Shown here in pieces: positions 19,244 to 39,657 of a stretch of DNA of 64,000 bases (its first letter is position 1; each line of letters starts with the position of its first letter). The notes under the pieces were generated by a model. The model searched no databases. It worked only from the letters and a program-made list of their open reading frames with translations, and was not told where the DNA came from. Both the position numbers and the translations under genes were made by a program. The stretch is from a virus. The stretch lies in the IMG/VR virus record IMGVR_UViG_3300045256_000282, positions 1 to 64,000 of that record; one strand, given 5' to 3'.

Positions 19244-20770
19244 ATGATGAAGGCTAAGGATCAAACTACAGAACGGATCGTTGCAGAAAGGTTTCCCAAA
19301 GGGGATACTGCTGAGAAGATCGCCTTAGATTTGAACCTAACAATATCCGCTATAAATTATCATATTAATAAGCTAAAACTCAGAAAGCCTATAGATAGGT
19401 CCAGACCATGCACAATATGTGGGATTGTCTTTGTACCTAAATATAGCGATGGTGTAAAGAAGAACAAGTATAAAACATGCTCTGTAGAATGTTATAGTGC
19501 ATTCCTGAGTAAGAGCCGTACTAAGTACTCCGAAGATGATATTCAAAAAGTTAAGGACCTAAAGAGTAGGGGTGTTGAAAACTTTTTGATTTCTAAACAA
19601 ACTGGGGTAGACATAAATAAGGTCAAAGAGATAGTAAGGAAAAACAACCTATTCTTAGACACTGCCGTTAAGACTAAAAATTCTCAAAAAGGTAAGGCAT
19701 TAAAAAACCCAGACCATATGTCCCACATGAGAAGCGGCCATATGGAACTTTCTGAGGAACAGTTTTACAAAAAAATTAAACTCATTGAGAAGGACATAGA
19801 ATTAGGTTTAGGCACAGCTTCTGGTTTGGCTGTAAAGTACGGATTGGTACCGGCCTCCGTAGTAGCAGTACTTAATAGGCAGGGAAAGAAGAGCCTTTTA
19901 AACGTCAAGGAGTCAACCGGACAAGTTGGTGTTAAAGAGTTTTTAGAAAGTATTGGCTTAAAAGTTTCCTACAACGACAGGAAAGCAATAAAACCCAAGG
20001 AGATTGACATCTACGTTGAGAGCAAGAAGATCGGTATCGAGTACTGCGGTATATACTGGCACTCAGACCTGTTCATAGACGATAATACCCACCTGGACAA
20101 GATGAAGATGGCCAATGCTGCGGGAATTCGTCTGATAACGATATTTGAGGATGAGTGGTTGAATAGGCAGGATCAGGTTAAGAACTTCCTTAAGGCTACA
20201 CTTGGTGTTAGCGATAGGAAGCTACACGGTCGAAAATGCACCGTTAAGATCATACCTGCCCTTGTCGGTAAGACCTTCATGGAAAACTATCATATACAAG
20301 GTGCTGCCATTAGGAGCATGGTCTATCTAGGGCTTTGGCATGAGGATGAACTGGTAGGTGTTATGAGTCTAGGTAGGCATCATAGGCGCTCAGCTAACGG
20401 TGAAGTGGTGTTGGATAGGTTATGTTTTAAGGATGGGGTTACCGTGTCAGGAGGATCCTCAAAGCTTCTGTGTGTAGCAATAGGGTGGGCTAAAAAACAA
20501 GGTTTTACGAAGATGGTAAGTTGGTCCGACAACAGGTGGTCCCAGGGTGACGTATACCGGGCCTGTGGCTTTAAGCTTGAAGAGGAGCTTAGGAGGGACT
20601 ATAGCTACGTTAAGCAAGCCGGGCGTGTCTCCAAGCAATCCTGCACCAAGGCAGCCTTAGCTAGGCTGGGTGCGGTAGGGGCTACTGAGAAGGAGATGGC
20701 CGAAAGCCTTGGGTATGCTAGGATTTGGGATTGCGGCAAGAAGCGATGGGTACTGGAAATCGAGCAATAA
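19244..20770 (+). CDS. Hef-like PD-(D/E)XK homing endonuclease with N-terminal HTH/Zn finger and C-terminal Mom/GNAT-like domain
   Basis: CTIC..CSVEC, EIDIYV..IGIEYCGIYWHS, IFEDEW, GGSSKLL, WSDNRWS, IWDCGK; own extended -10 (TGaTATACT, 19231-19239). Confidence 0.75.
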   Translation: MMKAKDQTTERIVAERFPKGDTAEKIALDLNLTISAINYHINKLKLRKPIDRSRPCTICGIVFVPKYSDGVKKNKYKTCSVECYSAFLSKSRTKYSEDDIQKVKDLKSRGVENFLISKQTGVDINKVKEIVRKNNLFLDTAVKTKNSQKGKALKNPDHMSHMRSGHMELSEEQFYKKIKLIEKDIELGLGTASGLAVKYGLVPASVVAVLNRQGKKSLLNVKESTGQVGVKEFLESIGLKVSYNDRKAIKPKEIDIYVESKKIGIEYCGIYWHSDLFIDDNTHLDKMKMANAAGIRLITIFEDEWLNRQDQVKNFLKATLGVSDRKLHGRKCTVKIIPALVGKTFMENYHIQGAAIRSMVYLGLWHEDELVGVMSLGRHHRRSANGEVVLDRLCFKDGVTVSGGSSKLLCVAIGWAKKQGFTKMVSWSDNRWSQGDVYRACGFKLEEELRRDYSYVKQAGRVSKQSCTKAALARLGAVGATEKEMAESLGYARIWDCGKKRWVLEIEQ

Positions 20771-23387: not shown

Positions 23388-24446
23388 ATGAGAAACCTAG
23401 TTTCAAGACCACACATCATTCTTTCGGTAGAAAATCCGGGTTACCCCGCATCTTCTCCCGTATCTCACGATGTGGCCGTTAAGAGTCTAGAAAAATTAGG
23501 TGGTGGCAAGGTTCATACGATCAAAGGGCATTACGGGAAGCCTGAGCAGAGTATCTTGATAAGCGATCCTAGTGACGAGCAGGCGCAGTTTGCAAGGCAC
23601 CTTGCCCACTCTACCGGGCAGGAATCCCACATAGAGAGTGACGGACATAGTCACAAGATGTATTTTAATAACGGACCTAAGGCTGGCTCTATCGTACATG
23701 GTCGCGGAACTAAGTGGCACTCAAAGGCACCAAAAGACTACTTCACCACCCTTCCGTCTGGGGAAACTTTTACTCATAACTTTGAGATGGAGAAGGCTGA
23801 AAAAACACCGGGCTCAGGTGTAAAGATTAATCCTCAGCATGGAGCACAGATTGCTCAGGCATATGAAAGCATGAAACATGACCCTTCTCATCCCGATGTT
23901 AAGGCGGCGTATGGGGCACTTATAAGCGAGACTAAGGATCAGTTCAAAAAGATCTTGGGTTCTGGATTTAAGATTTCTAAGATAAAACCAGGCCAGGCAA
24001 ACCCATACAAAACTTCTAAAGATATGCATCACGATATAGAACACAACAAGCATCTTTGGTATTTTCCAACAGAGGCTGGGTTTGGTTCTAGTGATCAATC
24101 AAGTTCTGATCATCCCATGCTTGCGCCTACGGAGTTTACACACGGAGATCACAAGCTTCTTGCTAATGACATGTTCAGGATAGTACATGACATAAATGGG
24201 CACCATCTGGGTGGAAAAAGTGGATTTGGTCCAAAGGGAGAGCATGAGGCATACCTTCATCACAAGACTATGTACTCACCTATGGCAGGGAAGGCTTTGG
24301 CTACCGAAACGATGGGACAAAATAATACAGTTAATTTTGGACGTCATGGTGAAAATAATCGTAAGAATCCTTCTAAAACGATATATGCTGATCAAAAAGC
24401 TGGACTTTTGCCTGATAACATCATAAACGGAGATTGGCACAAATGA
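23388..24446 (+). CDS. Two-domain putative internal head protein: SAM-lyase/DUF3293-like N-domain plus HDxxGH metallo-domain
   Basis: ILSVENP..GHYGKPEQSILI..GQES; MEKA linker; FRIVHDINGH..GE..LATETMGQN. Confidence 0.55.
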   Translation: MRNLVSRPHIILSVENPGYPASSPVSHDVAVKSLEKLGGGKVHTIKGHYGKPEQSILISDPSDEQAQFARHLAHSTGQESHIESDGHSHKMYFNNGPKAGSIVHGRGTKWHSKAPKDYFTTLPSGETFTHNFEMEKAEKTPGSGVKINPQHGAQIAQAYESMKHDPSHPDVKAAYGALISETKDQFKKILGSGFKISKIKPGQANPYKTSKDMHHDIEHNKHLWYFPTEAGFGSSDQSSSDHPMLAPTEFTHGDHKLLANDMFRIVHDINGHHLGGKSGFGPKGEHEAYLHHKTMYSPMAGKALATETMGQNNTVNFGRHGENNRKNPSKTIYADQKAGLLPDNIINGDWHK

Positions 24447-26878
24447 AACACCGTCATTACCGTAGGATGATGTCCGATTCCTTAAAAGAGATACAGGATC
24501 TTGATAAGGCAGATGTAAAAATCTCAGAAAAAGATTTTGTTGATGAGCATAAGAAGCTTTTAGATGTACTTGAACATCCTACTAAGAAAAAACTTAAAGA
24601 AGAGGCCAAAGATCAGGGTAAGGAACTTAAAGAAGAACTTGCTAAAGCCCCAATCGCATACCACGGCAGCACCGTTCCTTTTGAGGAACATGCGAAGCCT
24701 AAGAAGGACCCTAAGAGTCAACTTAACTATGGACCCGGCATATACTACGCTACGGACCCCGAAGAAGCTTCTAGTTACGCAGAGCCTCAGATTGCTAGGA
24801 TCAATGATCACTCTAGCGCACTTACTGAGGTTCAAAAAGAGCCCGGATATAGAGAATACCGCGACTCTGTTGCATCTAAGATGGGGTTGTCTAGCTCCGT
24901 AGATACGAAACATAAAAACTGGGATAAATTTGCAGATCATATGCTTTCTTACGACAAGCAGAAGATCAACGAAAAGCTTAAGCTTGCTCCAAACGTAAGG
25001 CGATCGGATGTTCAAGTTAATAAACCTTTTGATCCCTACAACAAGAAACACGCGCTAGCAGTCTATCAGGCACTAGGCATAGAACCAGACCACTTCAGGC
25101 TTGGTCAGGAGCATAAGGCCGGTTCCAACCTTTATGGACAGATCGCAAACCACGATAAGTTTGACAATCTAAAGTGGGGAGAAAAAACTCATAAAGTAAA
25201 TCAGGCAATAAAAAGAGCTGGGTTTGACGGTATCCACGACAAGAAGCTCGGGCACATTATCGCTTTTGACCCTAAGCAGATCAAGCCAGCATATGGTGCT
25301 GCTAAAAAACCTAAGAAGCTTGCCGCATCTGAGCTTGAGAAGTCTAAAAACGTTCGCGAACAGCGAAAGAAGGTGTTCGGTACTGACGCGAATGCTCCTA
25401 GAACGTCTGAGAAGCGCATGAAGATGATGCAGATGATTAGACAATACGCTCAAAAGAAGTACGGCCTTCCTCTTGTAACAGCTTCTGGTAAGAGAGATGA
25501 GTCCGGTAAGCTTAAGGAGCAAAAAGGAATTGAGGGTCAGCCTTACGACGTATTTACTCCTAAAGGCGTGGCTCAAGAAAAGAAGCGCCTGGCTCAGATT
25601 AAAGAAAAAGGAACCAAGCGAGTAGATCCAAAACCTGACTGGCGTTCTGGTCAGCTTGAGACTCAGCCGTCTCCAGATGCTGCCGTACACGAGCTTTCAC
25701 ATCTTGACCTTGCTCCAGAGGGTATGACGGCTCCAAAATTTCAAACTGAGATGGATCGTCTTTGGGGAGATTCTCAAAGCAAATACGGTCATATGCAGCA
25801 AAAGAAGACTCGCGGTGAAATTCAGCCGATGTCTATCGAAAATCCAATACGAAGAGAAATGGGCCTACCCGCTAATAAGCAAACAAAACCAGTTACTGCT
25901 AACCAGTCAGTTCTTGATGACCCTACTGGAAAAGAAAAACGTTTTGTTGAAGGTAAAGATGCTAACGGCAAAAAAGCTTTTTACGATCGTCAATCTAGGC
26001 TTCAAAATCAAGATACTAAAGACAGACGACAGCAGATTCAAGAAGGAAGCTTAAAATTTCATCCTGAAAAGGGATGGCAACAAGCTTCGGACACCAATGC
26101 CCTTATTAATTTGAGGGGTAGAGGTTTGAAGGAAGAGGCTGCAAACAGACTTAAGGCAAGGCTTGGATTTCAGTCCCAACCAAAGAAGTTGGCGGCAAGT
26201 GAAGATTTAAAAAAAGAACAGTGGGAAAGAAAAAGAACAGGATCTTCTCTTAACCCTTTGCACGGCGTAATATCGCCGGAAGGAAAGTTTTATCCTATGA
26301 ATGCAGATGAGATGCATTCTAACAAGATAATTCAAGCAAGTCTCCCTCCTTACGCCAAGGTTAGCTATACGCCTGGCGAGCTTGAAAACGAAGTAAACAA
26401 AAAGATGGGCGAAGGATGGATTTCTGTTGGAACCGCTGGGGAACCTAGCTTCATCGGACACTCTTCTGTATTAAGCAACCCAAGACATCCCGCCACCGCC
26501 GCACTTAGGGGTCTTATTCGTGAAGCTCAAAATGATCCAAAAAACACCGCTGGTTTTTGGACTGGTCATGTTGAAGTTTCTCATAGTGACAAGAAGCCCA
26601 TCAAGGGTGCAGAAACTCTTGAGCACGCCCCTCATGTGGGTTATGTAAGTGCTGATCACTTTGTCAGGCACGGCACGTTTAAGCCACACAAAGATTTGGG
26701 ACGATCCGAAATTGAAAAAAGCTGGTCGGCAAAGCTTGCAGCGAAATACAAGGCCCAAAGACCTCAAACTCCTCAAGAAATTAAAGAATCAAAAGAAAAA
26801 CACAAGAAGGCAATGGAAGCTGCACTGGCTGCTATAGACAAGATCAAAAAGCCAACTAAGCCTGGAGGTCAGAAATGA
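24434..26878 (+). CDS. Polyvalent multi-domain protein: ART-like domain, HExxH zincin, unknown domain
   Basis: AYHGS..GPGIYYATDPEEASSYA..GFDGI..AFDPKQIK; AVHELSH..ENPIRREMGLP; repeated PKKLAASE linker. Confidence 0.65.
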   Translation: MAQMKHRHYRRMMSDSLKEIQDLDKADVKISEKDFVDEHKKLLDVLEHPTKKKLKEEAKDQGKELKEELAKAPIAYHGSTVPFEEHAKPKKDPKSQLNYGPGIYYATDPEEASSYAEPQIARINDHSSALTEVQKEPGYREYRDSVASKMGLSSSVDTKHKNWDKFADHMLSYDKQKINEKLKLAPNVRRSDVQVNKPFDPYNKKHALAVYQALGIEPDHFRLGQEHKAGSNLYGQIANHDKFDNLKWGEKTHKVNQAIKRAGFDGIHDKKLGHIIAFDPKQIKPAYGAAKKPKKLAASELEKSKNVREQRKKVFGTDANAPRTSEKRMKMMQMIRQYAQKKYGLPLVTASGKRDESGKLKEQKGIEGQPYDVFTPKGVAQEKKRLAQIKEKGTKRVDPKPDWRSGQLETQPSPDAAVHELSHLDLAPEGMTAPKFQTEMDRLWGDSQSKYGHMQQKKTRGEIQPMSIENPIRREMGLPANKQTKPVTANQSVLDDPTGKEKRFVEGKDANGKKAFYDRQSRLQNQDTKDRRQQIQEGSLKFHPEKGWQQASDTNALINLRGRGLKEEAANRLKARLGFQSQPKKLAASEDLKKEQWERKRTGSSLNPLHGVISPEGKFYPMNADEMHSNKIIQASLPPYAKVSYTPGELENEVNKKMGEGWISVGTAGEPSFIGHSSVLSNPRHPATAALRGLIREAQNDPKNTAGFWTGHVEVSHSDKKPIKGAETLEHAPHVGYVSADHFVRHGTFKPHKDLGRSEIEKSWSAKLAAKYKAQRPQTPQEIKESKEKHKKAMEAALAAIDKIKKPTKPGGQK

Positions 26879-27426
26879 TCTGGGGAAGACTAAAAAAGAA
26901 CATTGAAGATAAGTTGATACCGGCAGCTCACAAGGAAAAGCTTTTTAAACAAAGAGAAAAATTCTCCAAGTCTGCAAAAGATGAGTCTTTAAAGCTTGAA
27001 CACTATTCTCATGAGCAAAACTTAAAAGAGATCGACCCCAAGAAGATGGGCTCTGGGGCAGACGCTCAAACAAAAAGAGGTGGCCCTATGGAGCACCCTC
27101 ATAGCTTTTTTTATAGAAGCGGCCATCCCCTACCCGAAGAAGATTCTCATATTCATCGTCAGGCTAGTAGCAAGTATCATGTTGAGTTGCCTTCAGATGT
27201 AAAACTTTACGACCTATCTACAGATCCTCATAGACTCAGAGAAAAACTAATACAAGAAACAAAGCATAGACAGGTAAACCCTGGGCACCCAACACCAGAC
27301 GAGCTTCATGAAAGACTCAAAAGCCACGGCTATCATGGGTTTTACTATTCTAAACATCCCTCAATGTCCAGCGTAGTTGCTCTATATGACAAGGTTCCAG
27401 TAAAATCTGAGGAGAAGAAAAAATGA
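26875..27426 (+). CDS. Putative ADP-ribosyltransferase-fold protein
   Basis: LEHYS..IDPKKMGSG..SFFY..GYHGFY, the same motif order as the upstream ART-like domain. Confidence 0.45.
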   Translation: MIWGRLKKNIEDKLIPAAHKEKLFKQREKFSKSAKDESLKLEHYSHEQNLKEIDPKKMGSGADAQTKRGGPMEHPHSFFYRSGHPLPEEDSHIHRQASSKYHVELPSDVKLYDLSTDPHRLREKLIQETKHRQVNPGHPTPDELHERLKSHGYHGFYYSKHPSMSSVVALYDKVPVKSEEKKK

Positions 27427-28529
27427 TGGATTCTCTAAAGAAATCTCATGAAAAGAACATGGCTCACAATGGCCTAGCGTTGTTGTACCCGGTCTCTGTT
27501 ATGGGAAGACACATGAGATCTAACGGGATACCACACCATGTTACGGTGAAGTTTTTTGATAAGCCAGAGATTACCGCAGATGATGCTCATGACTACGCTC
27601 AAAACGAAAATTTAAAAACTCCAAACCCTTACGACATTATGGTTACTCCTAAGGTTTTTAAAAATAGATTTGGCGAAGACGTACATGTTCTTGCTCTTGA
27701 AGGGTCGGGAATTGATCACGTAAAACAAGCAAACGCAAATGGCTCCCATCTTGGCCAGCCCGTAAATTACAAGTTTACCCCTCACATAAGTGTGGACAAA
27801 GAAACTCACGATAGGGTTGCCTCTATGGGAAGGCCAGTAAAAGCCAGTGAGCTGGGTATTAAGTTTGGCCCACCAGAACTTAGACATGGTCCCAGAGTGG
27901 TTGCCACCTATAATAAGATCGAAAAGAATATGTTTGGTATTGAGATTGAGGATGTTGAACTTAAAAAGTCCTTAAAACATACGGCTGCCGCGACCGCCGC
28001 GCTGATGGGTCTTATGGGTAATCCAAACATGGCTGGCTCTATTTCTGAAAAACCGCCTGTGGTTGCCCAACCTCAGGCAAACAAGGGCAGGATGCTTAGC
28101 GCTATAGCTGCTGTAGAATCTAGCTCAGGTAAAGATACACATCACGAGCCTTTGCATGGTATGCATCAAGGTGAAAGCGCTTATGGAAAGTACGGACTTA
28201 CGCCGATTACGGTTAGGGAAACCGTAGGTCGACACCCGGATCTTAAAAGAGCACACAGAGGAGTTTTATCTTTAAAAGGCAAGGATTTTCAATCCTACAT
28301 GCAAAAAAATCCAAAACTAGAGGAAGAGGTGGCCTCACGCCATTACGACAGATTAAACAAGCTCTTCCACGGAGACCCTGGAAAAATGGGTTATGCCTGG
28401 TTAAATGGGATAACTGGGGGTCTTAGAGCCGCCAAACAAGGGTTTGATTTTGACAACCATTGGCATGTTAAAAAGATCAAAAATGCGTATCAAACTATTG
28501 AAAACACTAAGAATTCTCAAAAAAAGTAA
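27423..28529 (+). CDS. 2H phosphodiesterase (Acb1-like) fused to a lysozyme-like muramidase domain
   Basis: HVTV and PHISV ~80 aa apart; LKKS linker; AIAAVESSSG..AYGKYGL. Confidence 0.7.
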   Translation: MMDSLKKSHEKNMAHNGLALLYPVSVMGRHMRSNGIPHHVTVKFFDKPEITADDAHDYAQNENLKTPNPYDIMVTPKVFKNRFGEDVHVLALEGSGIDHVKQANANGSHLGQPVNYKFTPHISVDKETHDRVASMGRPVKASELGIKFGPPELRHGPRVVATYNKIEKNMFGIEIEDVELKKSLKHTAAATAALMGLMGNPNMAGSISEKPPVVAQPQANKGRMLSAIAAVESSSGKDTHHEPLHGMHQGESAYGKYGLTPITVRETVGRHPDLKRAHRGVLSLKGKDFQSYMQKNPKLEEEVASRHYDRLNKLFHGDPGKMGYAWLNGITGGLRAAKQGFDFDNHWHVKKIKNAYQTIENTKNSQKK

Positions 28530-30733: not shown

Positions 30734-31642
30734 ATGAAGATCACAGCTTCTGCAGAACAGTTCCTTTCTAAGGCGCTGGGCCAAGATGGCCTAGATGCAC
30801 TGCAGAAGTCTGAGCTTTTTAAGCTAAAGGCCAATAAGGTCGTTCCTATAGACGAGATCAAGACTGCTATGCAGATCGTACCTCGGACTGTAATCACACT
30901 ACTCCACAAAGAACTTGGCGCGATGAAGATCGGTGAAGGCAAGGACGTAGTTCTTCCAGTTCAACCAGAAGCCATCTTACATGTAACCAAATACGACAAC
31001 GACGTTTATAGCGGGGATATCCATAGACCTGGAAACGTTATGGCTAAGTTTCAAGATCGATCACTCCCTGGCGTTGGTTTGATCATCATGTCTACTTTTG
31101 AGCTTTACGATGTATCAGACCTAGCATCGGCAGCTCCAAGCTCCGTGCCTAGCTTAGAAGAGGCTAACGTTCAAAAGATCATTGATGAAAGAATGGGCCT
31201 ACGAGATCTTGTAAGACAAGTAGTTGACCAAAGAATTACGGAAAGAGAAGCGATTGACAGCATCATAAGGATGAGGTTAACTCAAGCTATGGCCGAAGCT
31301 ACTCAAAAAAAAACAGAAAAGCCTGAAGAGGCACCTATGGAATCTAAAAAACCTACGAGTAAGCTTAAAGAGTTTATTGAACGAAGAGCTAGGAAAGCTC
31401 CTAAAGAATTTCAGATCAGCATGGCTAAGAACGAAACCGTTGTATGTGAAGATTGTAAAAAAGAGATCTTCACCAAAGGCGCGTTCTCTGGCTGCATCTG
31501 CTATGGTGACGATCGAAACAACAAGATCTTCATTACTAAGAATGAGAACGGATTTACTATGCGGTTTCCTCGTAGTTGGGATGTGGAAAACGTCCAGATG
31601 CTTTTGGAAACTTTGCGAGATAAGAACAGGGGTTCCAAATGA
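30734..31642 (+). CDS. Hypothetical head protein with C-terminal CxxC...CxC zinc-ribbon-like motif
   Basis: LSKAL, LQKSE, MAKNE motifs; CEDC..GCIC. Confidence 0.7.
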   Translation: MKITASAEQFLSKALGQDGLDALQKSELFKLKANKVVPIDEIKTAMQIVPRTVITLLHKELGAMKIGEGKDVVLPVQPEAILHVTKYDNDVYSGDIHRPGNVMAKFQDRSLPGVGLIIMSTFELYDVSDLASAAPSSVPSLEEANVQKIIDERMGLRDLVRQVVDQRITEREAIDSIIRMRLTQAMAEATQKKTEKPEEAPMESKKPTSKLKEFIERRARKAPKEFQISMAKNETVVCEDCKKEIFTKGAFSGCICYGDDRNNKIFITKNENGFTMRFPRSWDVENVQMLLETLRDKNRGSK

Positions 31643-33114
31643 ACAGATTATTCGTAGCTTTTGATGGCGATAATATGGGCTCACAAGTTGGTCAGGCTGT
31701 CCTTATGGACGATGCTCAACAACTTCACGAGATCTCTCGTCGAATTGATAGCGCTGGACGAGCGATACAGGATTGGGTGGAATCTAACGGAGGCCAGATG
31801 GTCTCGGTTGGTGGGGATGAAGGAACTTTTGTTATCGATCCTTCTATGGAAGAACATCTTGAGGAGTTGAGAGGAGTTTACCAACAGATCAGTGGTGGTA
31901 CCGTAACGTTTGGCGTAGGATACTCTCTAAGTCAAGCCGGTAAGGCTTTGATGGCTGGAAAACTTATGGGAAAAGATATTCTGGTTAGGTATGACGACCA
32001 GGTAGACCACATCCTTTCTGATGCGCATGATCAGGTTCAAACTGGTGGTGGAAGTCCCGAAGCTCAGAAACAAGATGAGCATTATCTTAGCCACGTTGTG
32101 CTAGGCGATGCTGGAAACGGCGAAGAGGATGTTAGCCAAGAATCTGCTGATGAATACGACATGGCTCCAACCTCTAATTCTCCAGATGACCAAGAAATTA
32201 CTCCTGAAGGCGCTGCTGCCGCACAAGAGATGGTAGATGACGCAGCAAATTCAGAAGGCTGCAATTGTCCTGCTTGCCAAGAGCGCCATGCTATGGAGGC
32301 TCAGGGTCAGGGGCCGGAAGAAGAAGCAACTGAGGGTTGCGATTGTCCTGCTTGCCAAGAGCGTCATGCTATGGAGAGTGGTGCTGAAGAGCCTATGCCA
32401 GAGATGGCTACTCAGAATGAAGAAGATCTTCCAGAACAAGACTCTATGCAGATGATTCCAGATGCTCAAGCTGAGGGTTCGGACCTTCCTCCTATGCAGA
32501 TGCCAGAATCTCAAGAAGATCCTCAAAGCGCTATGGGAGAAATGGGCGAAGAAGATGCTATCGAGATTCCAGAGAACGAGTCTTTAGACGAGCAAAAAGA
32601 TCCAGAAGAGATGGTTGCTGCCGCAGTAGGGCCTAATGAAGATCCTGAGCAAGAGGGCGCTGTTCCTGAAGAAAACATGTCAGAAGACGGCTTTCCAGGC
32701 GCAATTCCTGGTGAAGGTGAAGAACCCGTAAATCAAGAAGATCTAGAAGAGATGCAAGATCCTTCAAACGAACAGATGCCTCCCCAACAAGACATGGGAG
32801 CCATGGGTGAATCCCAGGAACAACCTGGGGACCTAGACCTATTGTCCGAACTTTTATCAGATGCAGGATCTACTGATGAGCTTAAACAAAGAATTGCAGC
32901 TATACTTGAAAAGTTTAAAGCGAACAGGGATTCAATCATCTCGATGAAAGATCAGAACCCCGAGATGTACCAATCGATCATACTCATGCTTAAGCAGATG
33001 ATCGACATGGCGAGACATCTAGCCCCATCATCGCCAGAGGAAGATATGCCTCAAGATGAGCAGTCTGTTCCAGAGGAAGCTTCTCAGGAGGAAGCACCTC
33101 TCCCAAAACAGTAG
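31639..33114 (+). CDS. mCpol (minimal CRISPR polymerase / GGDEF-like) nucleotide cyclase domain plus long acidic tail
   Basis: FVAFDGDNMG..VGGDEG..TVTFGVGYSLSQAGKALMAGKLMGKD in the first ~120 aa. Confidence 0.8.
   Translation: MNRLFVAFDGDNMGSQVGQAVLMDDAQQLHEISRRIDSAGRAIQDWVESNGGQMVSVGGDEGTFVIDPSMEEHLEELRGVYQQISGGTVTFGVGYSLSQAGKALMAGKLMGKDILVRYDDQVDHILSDAHDQVQTGGGSPEAQKQDEHYLSHVVLGDAGNGEEDVSQESADEYDMAPTSNSPDDQEITPEGAAAAQEMVDDAANSEGCNCPACQERHAMEAQGQGPEEEATEGCDCPACQERHAMESGAEEPMPEMATQNEEDLPEQDSMQMIPDAQAEGSDLPPMQMPESQEDPQSAMGEMGEEDAIEIPENESLDEQKDPEEMVAAAVGPNEDPEQEGAVPEENMSEDGFPGAIPGEGEEPVNQEDLEEMQDPSNEQMPPQQDMGAMGESQEQPGDLDLLSELLSDAGSTDELKQRIAAILEKFKANRDSIISMKDQNPEMYQSIILMLKQMIDMARHLAPSSPEEDMPQDEQSVPEEASQEEAPLPKQ
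32254..32376 (+). repeat. Two 45-bp direct repeats encoding EGCxCPACQERHAME
   Basis: Copies at 32254-32298 and 32332-32376. Confidence 0.9.
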
Positions 33115-33314
33115 GGTCGGTAGAAAAAGGCGGGAAACTGCCGACCAAGCAAACAACTCGCCACGTAGCAAGAACTAGACAACCCGAAGGTGCTATTAAC
33201 CGTAAGGGTTTTGAAAAAGTCATCGATAACGAGACTGGCAAAACTAGATGGGTAGATCGTAAGAAGCCTGTTGCCCTTGACCTACAGGGCGATCCTACTC
33301 ACGAGAGATTCTAA
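33102..33314 (+). other. Programmed -1 ribosomal frameshift signal and 70-codon -1 frame extension of the mCpol protein
   Basis: C CCA AAA (33102-33108), 6-nt spacer, stem 33115-33123/33138-33146, loop GGCGGG pairing with CTCGCC at 33157-33162; -1 frame open to TAA 33312-33314, which overlaps the next ATG. Confidence 0.8.
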
Positions 33315-35069: not shown

Positions 35070-35462
35070 ATGACCGTCAAGGATAATTTAAAGAAAGCGT
35101 TACATAAGGCTATCTTAAAGGCTTACCAAAATGGTAAGAAGTCTAAGGTCGTAGCCGACGTTATACACGATATAAGAGATCCTAACAACGTTCCTCAGGT
35201 ACCCGCTAAAGATCTTCCGGCTCCTGCTGAGGGCGTTTTAAACAAAGACATATCTCTATCAGAAATTCATCAACAAAAACAAGCTAATGCCATGGCTAAG
35301 CTAGGCCAGGCCCCAAAGGCACCAAGTCAATCTGGCGCGTTTAAGCAGGCCTCTATGGGCGCAAGTCCTAAGATGCCTAAAAGTTCAAAGCCTTTACAAT
35401 CCTTCATGCAAAAAAAGGAAGAAAAAAGGAACCTTAGCAAGAAATCAGCGAAAGGTATATAA
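35070..35462 (+). CDS. Basic hypothetical protein (possible internal head protein)
   Basis: 130 aa; LKKA, LHKA motifs; AATCTTTA at 35058. Confidence 0.65.
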   Translation: MTVKDNLKKALHKAILKAYQNGKKSKVVADVIHDIRDPNNVPQVPAKDLPAPAEGVLNKDISLSEIHQQKQANAMAKLGQAPKAPSQSGAFKQASMGASPKMPKSSKPLQSFMQKKEEKRNLSKKSAKGI

Positions 35463-35524
35463 CTTATTGATTTTTAAAGGCTTTTTTTGAGCCCAGAATC
35501 TTTATTAGGTTAGGAGAGTACAAC

Positions 35525-35809
35525 GTGAGCAAAAAAGAGTATACCGCAAAAGAAGCTGCCGTCGCCCTTCTTGACAAGATCAAGGCAAAGGCGCAGGTAC
35601 GAATGGCAAAGTCTGAGCCTGTAAAAGGCGAGAGTTTACAAAAAGCAAGCCCTGAGAACCAAAACATGGCCCAGGTTGCTGATATTAAAGCCCCACAGGC
35701 GGAAGCTCCTAAGGCTAACGAGAAGATGATTCCGAAGCAAAAAGAGCTTAAGCTTAAAAAGTTTATGGAACATATGACGGCTAAACGGAGCAAAAAACAT
35801 GGGTCGTAA
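35525..35809 (+). CDS. Basic hypothetical protein (possible internal head protein)
   Basis: GTG start after AGGAG; MAKSE, LQKAS; AATCTTTA at 35497. Confidence 0.65.
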   Translation: MSKKEYTAKEAAVALLDKIKAKAQVRMAKSEPVKGESLQKASPENQNMAQVADIKAPQAEAPKANEKMIPKQKELKLKKFMEHMTAKRSKKHGS

Positions 35810-38742: not shown

Positions 38743-38775
38743 AGGGGCGGCCTAAAAAGCCGCCCCTTTTCTTTT
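38743..38775 (+). terminator. Rho-independent terminator after tube
   Basis: AGGGGCGGC-7 nt-GCCGCCCCT plus T-rich tail. Confidence 0.9.
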
Positions 38776-38854: not shown

Positions 38855-39448
38855 ATGTTTATTGAGAAGAAGCTCAAACAGGTGCTTCCTCGTCCTCTTA
38901 TCGCGGACGGAAGCAAGTACGGTTTAGTTCGGGTGGCAGACATCCGAGGCTTCTATGTTAAACAAAAGATCACTCTAGTCTCTCCTGTAGCTCCCCCAGT
39001 TGAGCTTGAAGTCAAAAGATTTGAATCCCTAACATCCTTCTACGTAGGTCCCCTGCCAGCAAACGGCGGTAAGATAGGTGACCGTTCTGACATCACAGCA
39101 TACAAGGTAGCAGACGGCGCTGTTATAGCGGCTGGCGAACAAGACCGCCCAGGGATCAAGCCAGACGAGCATGAGCGAGCTGTTTACATGGAGGAGCCGA
39201 TAGTCGCCAAGCGCGTTATATCGGTTGATGAGTATGGCTCCGTTTACGGTAAAGATAATCCTATCCCTGTAGCCGTCACCGATACGGCAGGGTTTGCCCC
39301 ATCTGATTTTGATGAGGTTACCATAACAAGAGATGTGGAAGAATACCCCACATCGTACAACTTTTTTAAGAATTCCTCTCCTGTTGGTGTAATAGCCGTT
39401 ACATACAACCAAGAGAAGTCTGCAATCAAATATAAGAGGACGTCATGA
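38855..39448 (+). CDS. Hypothetical virion protein
   Basis: 197 aa. Confidence 0.7.
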   Translation: MFIEKKLKQVLPRPLIADGSKYGLVRVADIRGFYVKQKITLVSPVAPPVELEVKRFESLTSFYVGPLPANGGKIGDRSDITAYKVADGAVIAAGEQDRPGIKPDEHERAVYMEEPIVAKRVISVDEYGSVYGKDNPIPVAVTDTAGFAPSDFDEVTITRDVEEYPTSYNFFKNSSPVGVIAVTYNQEKSAIKYKRTS

Positions 39449-39657
39449 GTAGCCCTAAAGATAGAGAAGAGCTAGTCTTAAATCCTATTACGGGTAAGCT
39501 TGATGTAGTTAGGATCTTTAATCCTGATAGAATAGTTACAGCAGAAAGAAATTCTGCTGGCCATAGGTTTCAAACCTGGGATGCTGCCTCTGGGACCTTC
39601 ATTGACGACGCTCCGGTCGTAGTCATTGACAATAACGGCAACGTGGTAACCACCTGA
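39445..39657 (+). CDS. Hypothetical protein
   Basis: 70 aa, coupled on both sides. Confidence 0.65.
   Translation: MSSPKDREELVLNPITGKLDVVRIFNPDRIVTAERNSAGHRFQTWDAASGTFIDDAPVVVIDNNGNVVTT

Follow-up and report, generated by a model that had tools for sequence, protein, structure and literature searches.

A predicted mCpol-type nucleotide cyclase on a conserved, frameshifted carrier protein in the structural operon of Mx1-like phages

Nucleotide cyclases of the mCpol family have so far been known only as synthases of bacterial guard systems and were rated relatively rare in a 2025 survey, and finding one as a fixed gene of a phage lineage raises the question of what a virus would do with it. 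The gene was examined in a window of 64,000 nucleotides, the first 64 kb of IMG/VR virus record IMGVR_UViG_3300045256_000282 (149,068 bp; CheckV completeness estimate 93%), whose + strand encodes GroEL, the large terminase, portal, major capsid protein, tail sheath and tube. It lies within this structural operon as a zero-frame open reading frame (ORF) at positions 31639 to 33114 (+ strand; 491 aa, isoelectric point (pI) 4.05), with an SP10-terminator-like gene, the sheath and the tube lying downstream of it. An initial annotation had proposed an mCpol cyclase in the virion module that might act as a decoy against host nucleotide signalling. The best explanation overall, which we consider to have about an even chance of being correct, is a cyclase cargo on a conserved late head-tail joining carrier of Mx1-like myoviruses, countering host immunity.

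The identity of the N-terminal domain is the firmest part of this answer. All three motifs cited in the initial annotation are present, namely DGDNMG at residues 9-14, GGDE at residues 58-61 and a third motif with the pattern T88...G92-V-G-x-S-L...A100..A103-L...K108..G111-K112, and they fall within a palm domain spanning residues 1-135 (31639 to 32043, + strand) that is marked by D9, D11, G58-G59-D60-E61, K102, K108 and K112. The family assignment was confirmed by hidden Markov model (HMM), sequence and structure searches. The Pfam mCpol model PF18182 matched residues 5-118 over its full length (model positions 1-114 of 114) with an E-value of 1.2e-14 and 55.1 bits against a cut-off of 26.4 (58.7 bits in the whole-genome search), and a second, weaker Pfam match was to the Cas10/Cmr2 palm-2 domain. 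When phmmer was run against all PDB sequences, the sole matches were the two solved mCpol/OptS proteins, aligned end to end (9nwn, E-value 4e-7; 9mnr/9pd0, 8e-7). An AlphaFold2 model built on 19 homologues had a predicted local distance difference test score (pLDDT) above 90 over residues 1-150, and its top six Foldseek matches were the OptS/mCpol chains 9pd0, 9mnr and 9nwn, with template modelling (TM) scores of 0.87-0.91 (on target), a root mean square deviation (rmsd) of 1.5-1.9 Å and 25-26% identity, followed at lower rank by GGDEF domains, GTP cyclohydrolase III and Cas10. The family member P0150 gave a VIA-align Z-score of 17.5 to 9mnr, against 13.2 for its next match. Taken together, sequence and predicted structure make the identification of residues 1-135 as a genuine mCpol palm domain secure. 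D9 and D60 align to Asp6 and Asp57 of KpOptS, which PMC12657218 names as active-site residues. In addition, Ser33 aligns to KpOptS Ser30, a position reported to tune product choice, an alignment that gives only a hint towards adenine nucleotides.

The domain belongs to a large, almost entirely metagenomic family. An exhaustive phmmer search with residues 1-126 against 1.84 billion cluster representatives recovered 784 clusters at E ≤1e-3, 550 of them at E ≤1e-10, and among the best 150 of the 784 nearly all proteins measured 350-600 aa and carried the domain N-terminally. Column conservation was counted over 161 domain matches taken from 50%-identity clusters. Across these, D9 is Asp in 139 and Asn in 18 (one subclade), D11 is invariant (158/158), as is G59 (161/161), D60 is kept in 157/161, E61 is Glu in 145 and Gln in 12, and K108 is kept in 160/161. 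Judged from these columns, the active site is under strong constraint wherever the domain is present. Near-invariance extends to the Asp residues that bind metal, to the GGDE hairpin and to the Lys residues that bind phosphate, and since docking needs none of them, their retention points to catalysis. Enzyme activity of the phage domain is predicted with fairly high confidence. The expectation that catalytic residues would be conserved in phage homologues was borne out in these columns; loss of the catalytic Asp, which the initial annotation had named as a pointer to a purely structural role, was seen in one cultured relative, Myxococcus phage Mx1, and not across the 161 domain matches.

Mx1 is the sole relative among 50,697 isolated phages, with a capsid protein of 54% identity. 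Searching these isolated phage genomes by tblastn, with either the whole protein or residues 1-126, gave no match, and Mx1 was reached only when more distant family members or a neighbouring gene were used as query. No PHROG family matched any part of the protein, and BFVD held one uncharacterised family member together with several phage GGDEF proteins. A phage structural-module mCpol was not found in the texts returned by a full-text literature search, which were Panoptes papers and reviews only.

What follows the cyclase domain had been described in the initial annotation as an acidic disordered tail, and this holds for the middle of the protein and not for its end. In a full-length alignment of the 19 homologues (31-55% identity over aligned columns) and in the AlphaFold2 model, the palm domain is succeeded by a conserved helix (32056 to 32109, + strand; residues 140-157, QKxDEHYL) with invariant K144 and Y149, and then by a variable acidic linker (32110 to 32829, + strand; residues 158-397) that is predicted to be disordered, with pLDDT below 50 over most of residues 163-396 and 71 Asp and Glu against 3 Lys and Arg over residues 151-397. 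Within this linker lies a duplicated CxCPxC-QERHAME motif (32260 to 32355, + strand; CxCPxC at residues 208-213 and 234-239). CxxC motifs occur in the linkers of 39 of the 149 long representatives, similar Cys motifs (CxCxxC, CxYC) are found in many homologues, and the Cys motifs of the linker may bind metal. The alignment and an HMM delimit a conserved helical module beyond the linker (32830 to 33021, + strand; residues 398-461) of three to four helices with pLDDT of about 80-86. It is matched in 146/161 representatives, in 145/160 of those having the mCpol domain and in all 20 of the related metagenomic loci (18 from IMG/VR and two contigs binned in metagenome-assembled genomes (MAGs)). The acidic C-terminal end of the zero-frame form is always P-K-x in the 19 aligned homologues.

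This end coincides with the signals of a programmed -1 frameshift. The span of 31639-33314 given in the initial annotation is an ORF as far as 33114, and its remainder (33115-33314) is not part of the zero frame, being instead a -1 frameshift extension. A slippery heptamer, C CCA AAA (33102 to 33108, + strand), covers codons P489-K490 and encodes the invariant P-K; each of the 13 distinct loci (13/13) has C CCA AAG, C CCA AAA or A AAA AAG at this site. Six nucleotides downstream, RNAalifold predicts a stimulatory hairpin (33115 to 33146, + strand; arms 33115-33124 and 33137-33146) of nine pairs, four of them with compensatory changes. Pairing was found in 89.6% of cells, against 76.8% in column shuffles, and none of 500 shuffles equalled the observed pairing or covariation, while slid-partner controls paired in no more than 44% of cells; the covariation is to be read with the caveat that the 3' arm also encodes a conserved LP(T/A)K. 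The -1 frame then continues (33108 to 33314, + strand) for 68 aa of pI 10.2, comprising a KLPTKQTT..HV....PEGA.N.KG..KV.DN.TG..RW.D.K module; it contains no start codon (ATG, GTG or TTG), and it closes with a TAA (33312-33314) that shares bases with the ATG of the following gene (TAATG). The same arrangement was found in 16 of the 17 IMG/VR loci analysed, the basic peptide encoded by the -1 frame being conserved, 59-75 residues long and extending as far as the next gene, and in a further locus, L018, the basic module is likewise in a separate frame. Overall the peptide is conserved in 19/20 loci (HMM E-values 1e-17 to 1e-30), and it is fused in frame in Mx1, in the two MAG-binned contigs and in 29/161 representatives. 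These in-frame fusions make a non-coding reading of the -1 frame untenable, and a programmed -1 frameshift at this gene is well supported by the conserved signals. The predicted transframe product of 558 aa would join an acidic body (pI 4.05) to a basic end (pI 10.2). In the compact in-frame relative P0150 (298 aa) the basic module is predicted to form a small three-stranded beta unit (pLDDT 61-87). When longer proteins bearing the 68-aa extension were sought with a profile, three matches were obtained, a yield limited by the dependence of the tool on shared words.

Several further observations concern this C-terminal region. The frameshift brought a tail assembly chaperone into consideration, which was rejected on position, the gene being four genes upstream of the sheath. 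A second frameshift, considered for the 208-nt gap after gene 38855-39448, was rejected in favour of an ordinary small ORF (39445-39657, about 70 aa) with its ATG at the preceding stop. Most in-frame members of the '...GHAISSRNPGGK' type show a hydrophobic-x-K-(A/S/G) motif (LEKA, IDKA, FDKA) at the start of the basic module, and the slip itself generates LPKA in most frameshifting loci. The motif, which was examined at 33108-33140 (VEKG here) and at the C-termini of P0115, P0130, P0150, P0152 and P0158, may be a head-protease cleavage site. In one subclade (L010:9449-11335, with P0046, P0057 and P0066) the mCpol domain is preceded by an acidic N-terminal leader of about 185 aa, and the protein ends ...PKPNLPK, with neither a basic module nor a slippery site.

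Comparison of the relatives suggests which part of the protein the locus conserves. The Mx1 orthologue (WNM70340.1, 468 aa) lies at the same position; the alignment takes in the N-terminal domain (BLASTP E-value 2e-7) as well as the helical module, and the basic module is fused in frame. Its motifs have decayed, with FDGDNMG replaced by WSIDHLEG, GGDEG by LGAVG and the GK...GK lysines lost, and its mCpol fold is retained only weakly, at 21 bits in Pfam, under the cut-off. A contig in a Flavobacteriaceae MAG (L021:2499-3950) goes further, as the protein at the same position is without any mCpol domain but retains the linker, the helical module and, in frame, the basic module; it contains six CxxC motifs. 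Other members carry added GNAT acetyltransferase domains or unassigned N-terminal domains. Exchangeable enzyme domains are therefore set on a conserved part: an mCpol domain of active type in most members, dead in Mx1, absent from L021 and accompanied elsewhere by the added domains. Because mCpol is decayed in one relative and absent from the other, the conserved role of the locus lies in the carrier and not in the cyclase, and a carrier-plus-cargo architecture is well supported by these alignments.

The carrier gene is embedded in the head-tail joining operon. The gene order is w29283, w30269, w30734, the mCpol gene, w33314, w34063 (Pfam PF23932, SP10 terminator family), w35070, w35799, sheath and tube. 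The ATG of the mCpol ORF overlaps the stop of w30734 (ATGA), so that start and stop codons at the locus both overlap the adjoining genes, and the first strong + strand terminator downstream comes only after the tube gene, at 38743. Synteny around the gene is strict in the 18 IMG/VR loci (within contig limits) and the two MAG-binned contigs, in agreement with the placement of the gene in the virion module by the initial annotation, and the mCpol/carrier gene is a fixed core gene of this operon in 20/20 related metagenomic loci. Genes farther upstream (24434, 26875 and 27423) are variably present among relatives. No PDB sequence match was obtained for the neighbours w29283, w30734, w33314 and w34063. 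The two MAG-binned contigs, found in a genome-collection scan, came from one Flavobacteriaceae and one 'Deltaproteobacteria' bin, which is too weak for a host assignment.

Core status and strict synteny are also what would be expected if the protein were purely morphogenetic, an assembly factor or minor structural protein at the head-tail junction whose mCpol fold would act in dimerisation or docking, with no part played by a signalling nucleotide. Phage structural and assembly genes typically use frameshifts of fixed ratio, the domain persists in Mx1 in a catalytically dead state, and L021 manages without the domain altogether. Such a role would, however, leave the near-invariant Asp, GGDE hairpin and Lys over some 160 clusters superfluous, and we consider it rather unlikely. 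Loss of the domain in some relatives, combined with a constrained active site where it is kept, is better fitted by an enzyme on a structural-module carrier than by a fold used as a mere building block.

If the domain is an enzyme, the nearest precedent for its use is Panoptes, and the initial annotation had paired it with an upstream 'Acb1-like' 2H phosphodiesterase gene. That gene (27423-28529; 368 aa), which lies 3-4 kb upstream, does have 2H motifs (HHVTV and PHISV) in its N-terminal ~170 aa, and in the ESM Atlas its neighbours belong to clusters of viral Acb1 and of 2'-5' RNA ligase (score 0.93; TM of about 0.6 by structure), which serve as a lead only. The more specific models failed to recognise it: there was no match to the Acb1 HMM PF23474 at E ≤0.1 in the genome search, none to PF13563 (2_5_RNA_ligase2), none in Pfam at E ≤0.01 and no PDB sequence match. 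Its C-terminal half was described as lysozyme-like in the initial annotation. The two genes do not form an obligate pair, as a 2H match was present in 6 of the 18 IMG/VR loci (L003, L008, L010, L011, L012 and L013, representing five different phages since L012 and L013 are the same phage), compared with 18/18 for mCpol. Under the decoy hypothesis, the phage cyclase would supply an 'all is well' nucleotide (e.g. 2',3'-c-di-AMP or cA3) that keeps a host guard effector off while sponges or esterases of the phage deplete the signals of the host. OptS is indeed the closest solved relative, Ser33 occupies the KpOptS position linked to product choice, a divergent 2H esterase lies close by, and Panoptes is known to be triggered by Acb1 and by sponges (PMC12657230, PMC13577387). 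Nothing, however, links this phage to Panoptes or to a Panoptes-bearing host, identity to OptS is just 25-26%, the 2H gene is both patchily distributed and divergent, and the phage's own esterase might degrade the decoy nucleotide. Moreover, mCpol systems are relatively rare in prokaryotes according to PMC12657218, whereas the gene is fixed in a whole phage lineage. An anti-Panoptes role of the phage mCpol is unsupported, and we regard the decoy hypothesis as quite unlikely.

The genome was also searched for a receptor of the putative product. As stated in the initial annotation, no effector gene is adjacent, the neighbours having no S-2TM-beta, CARF-TM or SAVED-TM match in Pfam or PHROG. Across the 149-kb genome there was no match to Cap15/S-2TM-beta (Cap15_CD_rec), SAVED, CARF or cNMP-binding models, with the Cap15 and SAVED searches being weak negatives as they were without match in any control genome either. 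These results bear on a third possibility, that the protein is an unpackaged cytoplasmic enzyme of the late phase whose product governs a phage or host receptor in lysis timing, superinfection exclusion or host shut-off. The late-operon position fits such an enzyme, and annotated GGDEF cyclases are present in Bacillus phage G (gp350), SP-15 and Bordetella phage CN1. The lack of a CARF, SAVED, Cap15-type or cNMP-binding sensor counts against it, subject to the same limit on two of the searches, and the conserved carrier with its frameshifted basic module would be left unexplained. We consider this possibility unlikely.

We return to a cyclase cargo on a conserved carrier, and propose the following two-part model. 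Residues 1-135 would constitute a catalytically competent mCpol-type nucleotide cyclase, with OptS as the closest relative by sequence and fold, and the remainder would be a carrier in which the acidic linker and its Cys motifs are followed by the helical module and the small basic beta module. The basic module would be reached here only through the programmed -1 frameshift, which would yield 491-aa and 558-aa forms at a fixed ratio. The carrier is envisaged as the ancestral, indispensable element and the cyclase as its cargo domain. The protein would be synthesised late, alongside the particle proteins, and its C-terminal modules would tether it to the particle or pack it inside; such virion delivery is plausible, although we place it slightly short of an even chance. 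Acting in the host cell late in the current infection or as the next one begins, the cyclase would then turn nucleoside triphosphates (probably ATP) into a cyclic di- or oligonucleotide, and this product would disturb nucleotide-based host immunity.

A number of points weigh against this model. Mx1 keeps its dead domain rather than deleting it, which hints at a structural use of the fold. A late gene is badly timed for counter-defence, except if the protein is packaged. The label 'neck module' draws on position, one Pfam hit (PF23932) and the sheath, with w30734 and w33314 being without assigned function. The helical and basic modules each occur once in the 149-kb genome, with no second copy on other proteins, and for this genome a packaging tag common to several cargo proteins was rejected on the same count. 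Finally, fold searches with the three-module model of P0150 returned lists filled by the mCpol domain, and their results apply to that domain and not to the C-terminal modules.

A number of other features were observed elsewhere in the window. The terminator after the tube gene is a strong intrinsic-terminator-like hairpin (38743-38767) of nine pairs, eight of them G-C, followed by a T run. An HNH/homing-endonuclease-like gene (19244-20770; 508 aa, PHROG 3339, E-value 3e-91) directly follows the major capsid gene. A stretch of 336 nt without a + strand ORF (35462-35799) separates two conserved small genes, and inserts of widely differing length occupy this position in related loci (e.g. ~1.6 kb in L003). 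Upstream of the conserved neck genes, a variable block (23388-28529) differs among relatives and here encodes three basic proteins (pI 8.7-9.6), one of 814 aa with multiple domains, one of 183 aa and the 2H fusion. The equivalent place in Mx1 (L019 1-4303) holds a giant 'NUDIX hydrolase' and a 'kinase', and the block looks like an exchangeable enzyme-cargo region.

If the cyclase is active, phages, which are known to erase immune nucleotides (Acb1, ring nucleases) and to sponge them up (Acb2, Tad), would also write such signals. At its fullest, the proposal is that a myovirus lineage packs a working cyclase in or on its particle and floods the cell with a cyclic nucleotide, satisfying guards of the Panoptes kind or jamming the sensors of CBASS (cyclic-oligonucleotide-based anti-phage signalling system) or type III CRISPR; a virus would then write its host's immune second messenger, going beyond erasing and sponging. 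We regard this fullest form as improbable. The family itself comprises hundreds of metagenomic clusters, against one cultured relative, Mx1, with a catalytically dead copy, and the active-type, dead and absent versions of the cyclase at the same locus amount to a natural experiment. The frameshift is a new, well-supported example beyond the tail-chaperone and capsid cases.

The closest known system is Panoptes. The literature presents mCpol as a 'relatively rare' defence synthase of bacteria and archaea (PMC12657218), with type I OptS producing 2',3'-c-di-AMP and type II producing cA3 (PMC12657218, PMC12657230, PMC13577387). The phage domain shares with OptS the same minimal palm fold over ~119 residues (rmsd 1.5-1.9 Å), matching acidic residues and a full-length match to the Pfam model. 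It differs in having a canonical GGDE where KpOptS has AADG, in its identity of only 25-26%, and in being fused to a carrier of ~360 aa (491 or 558 aa in total), whereas OptS is a stand-alone protein of 120-130 aa. The phage protein is, moreover, predicted to exist in two isoforms through the frameshift, and its gene belongs to a late structural operon with no effector gene, in contrast to the two-gene bacterial defence operon (OptS and OptE) of Panoptes. Phage GGDEF proteins (phage G gp350, SP-15, CN1 and the BFVD matches) are likewise phage-encoded nucleotide cyclases with a palm fold, but they are of GGDEF type, give weaker structural matches and are not borne on the mCpol carrier.

Among phage structural and assembly genes, programmed -1 frameshifting is known from the lambda G/GT tail chaperones and the T7 capsid proteins 10A/10B. 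The present gene resembles these in its X XXY YYZ heptamer close to where the upstream frame ends, its downstream RNA structure, its acidic short form with a basic extension and, as predicted here, a fixed product ratio from a late gene. Unlike lambda G/GT, it lies off the tube/tape-measure position of tail chaperones, and unlike both systems its protein bears an enzyme domain and its relatives fuse the extension in frame. A further parallel is offered by packaged phage effectors, such as T4 Alt and the internal proteins, and by the polyvalent phage proteins reportedly described by Iyer, Burroughs and Aravind in 2017. The present protein departs from these in having its conserved part at the C-terminus and in the lack of a MuF or portal-associated anchor here; in common with them, it sets an exchangeable enzyme domain on a conserved non-enzymatic part, and is encoded among particle genes beside a variable enzyme-like block.

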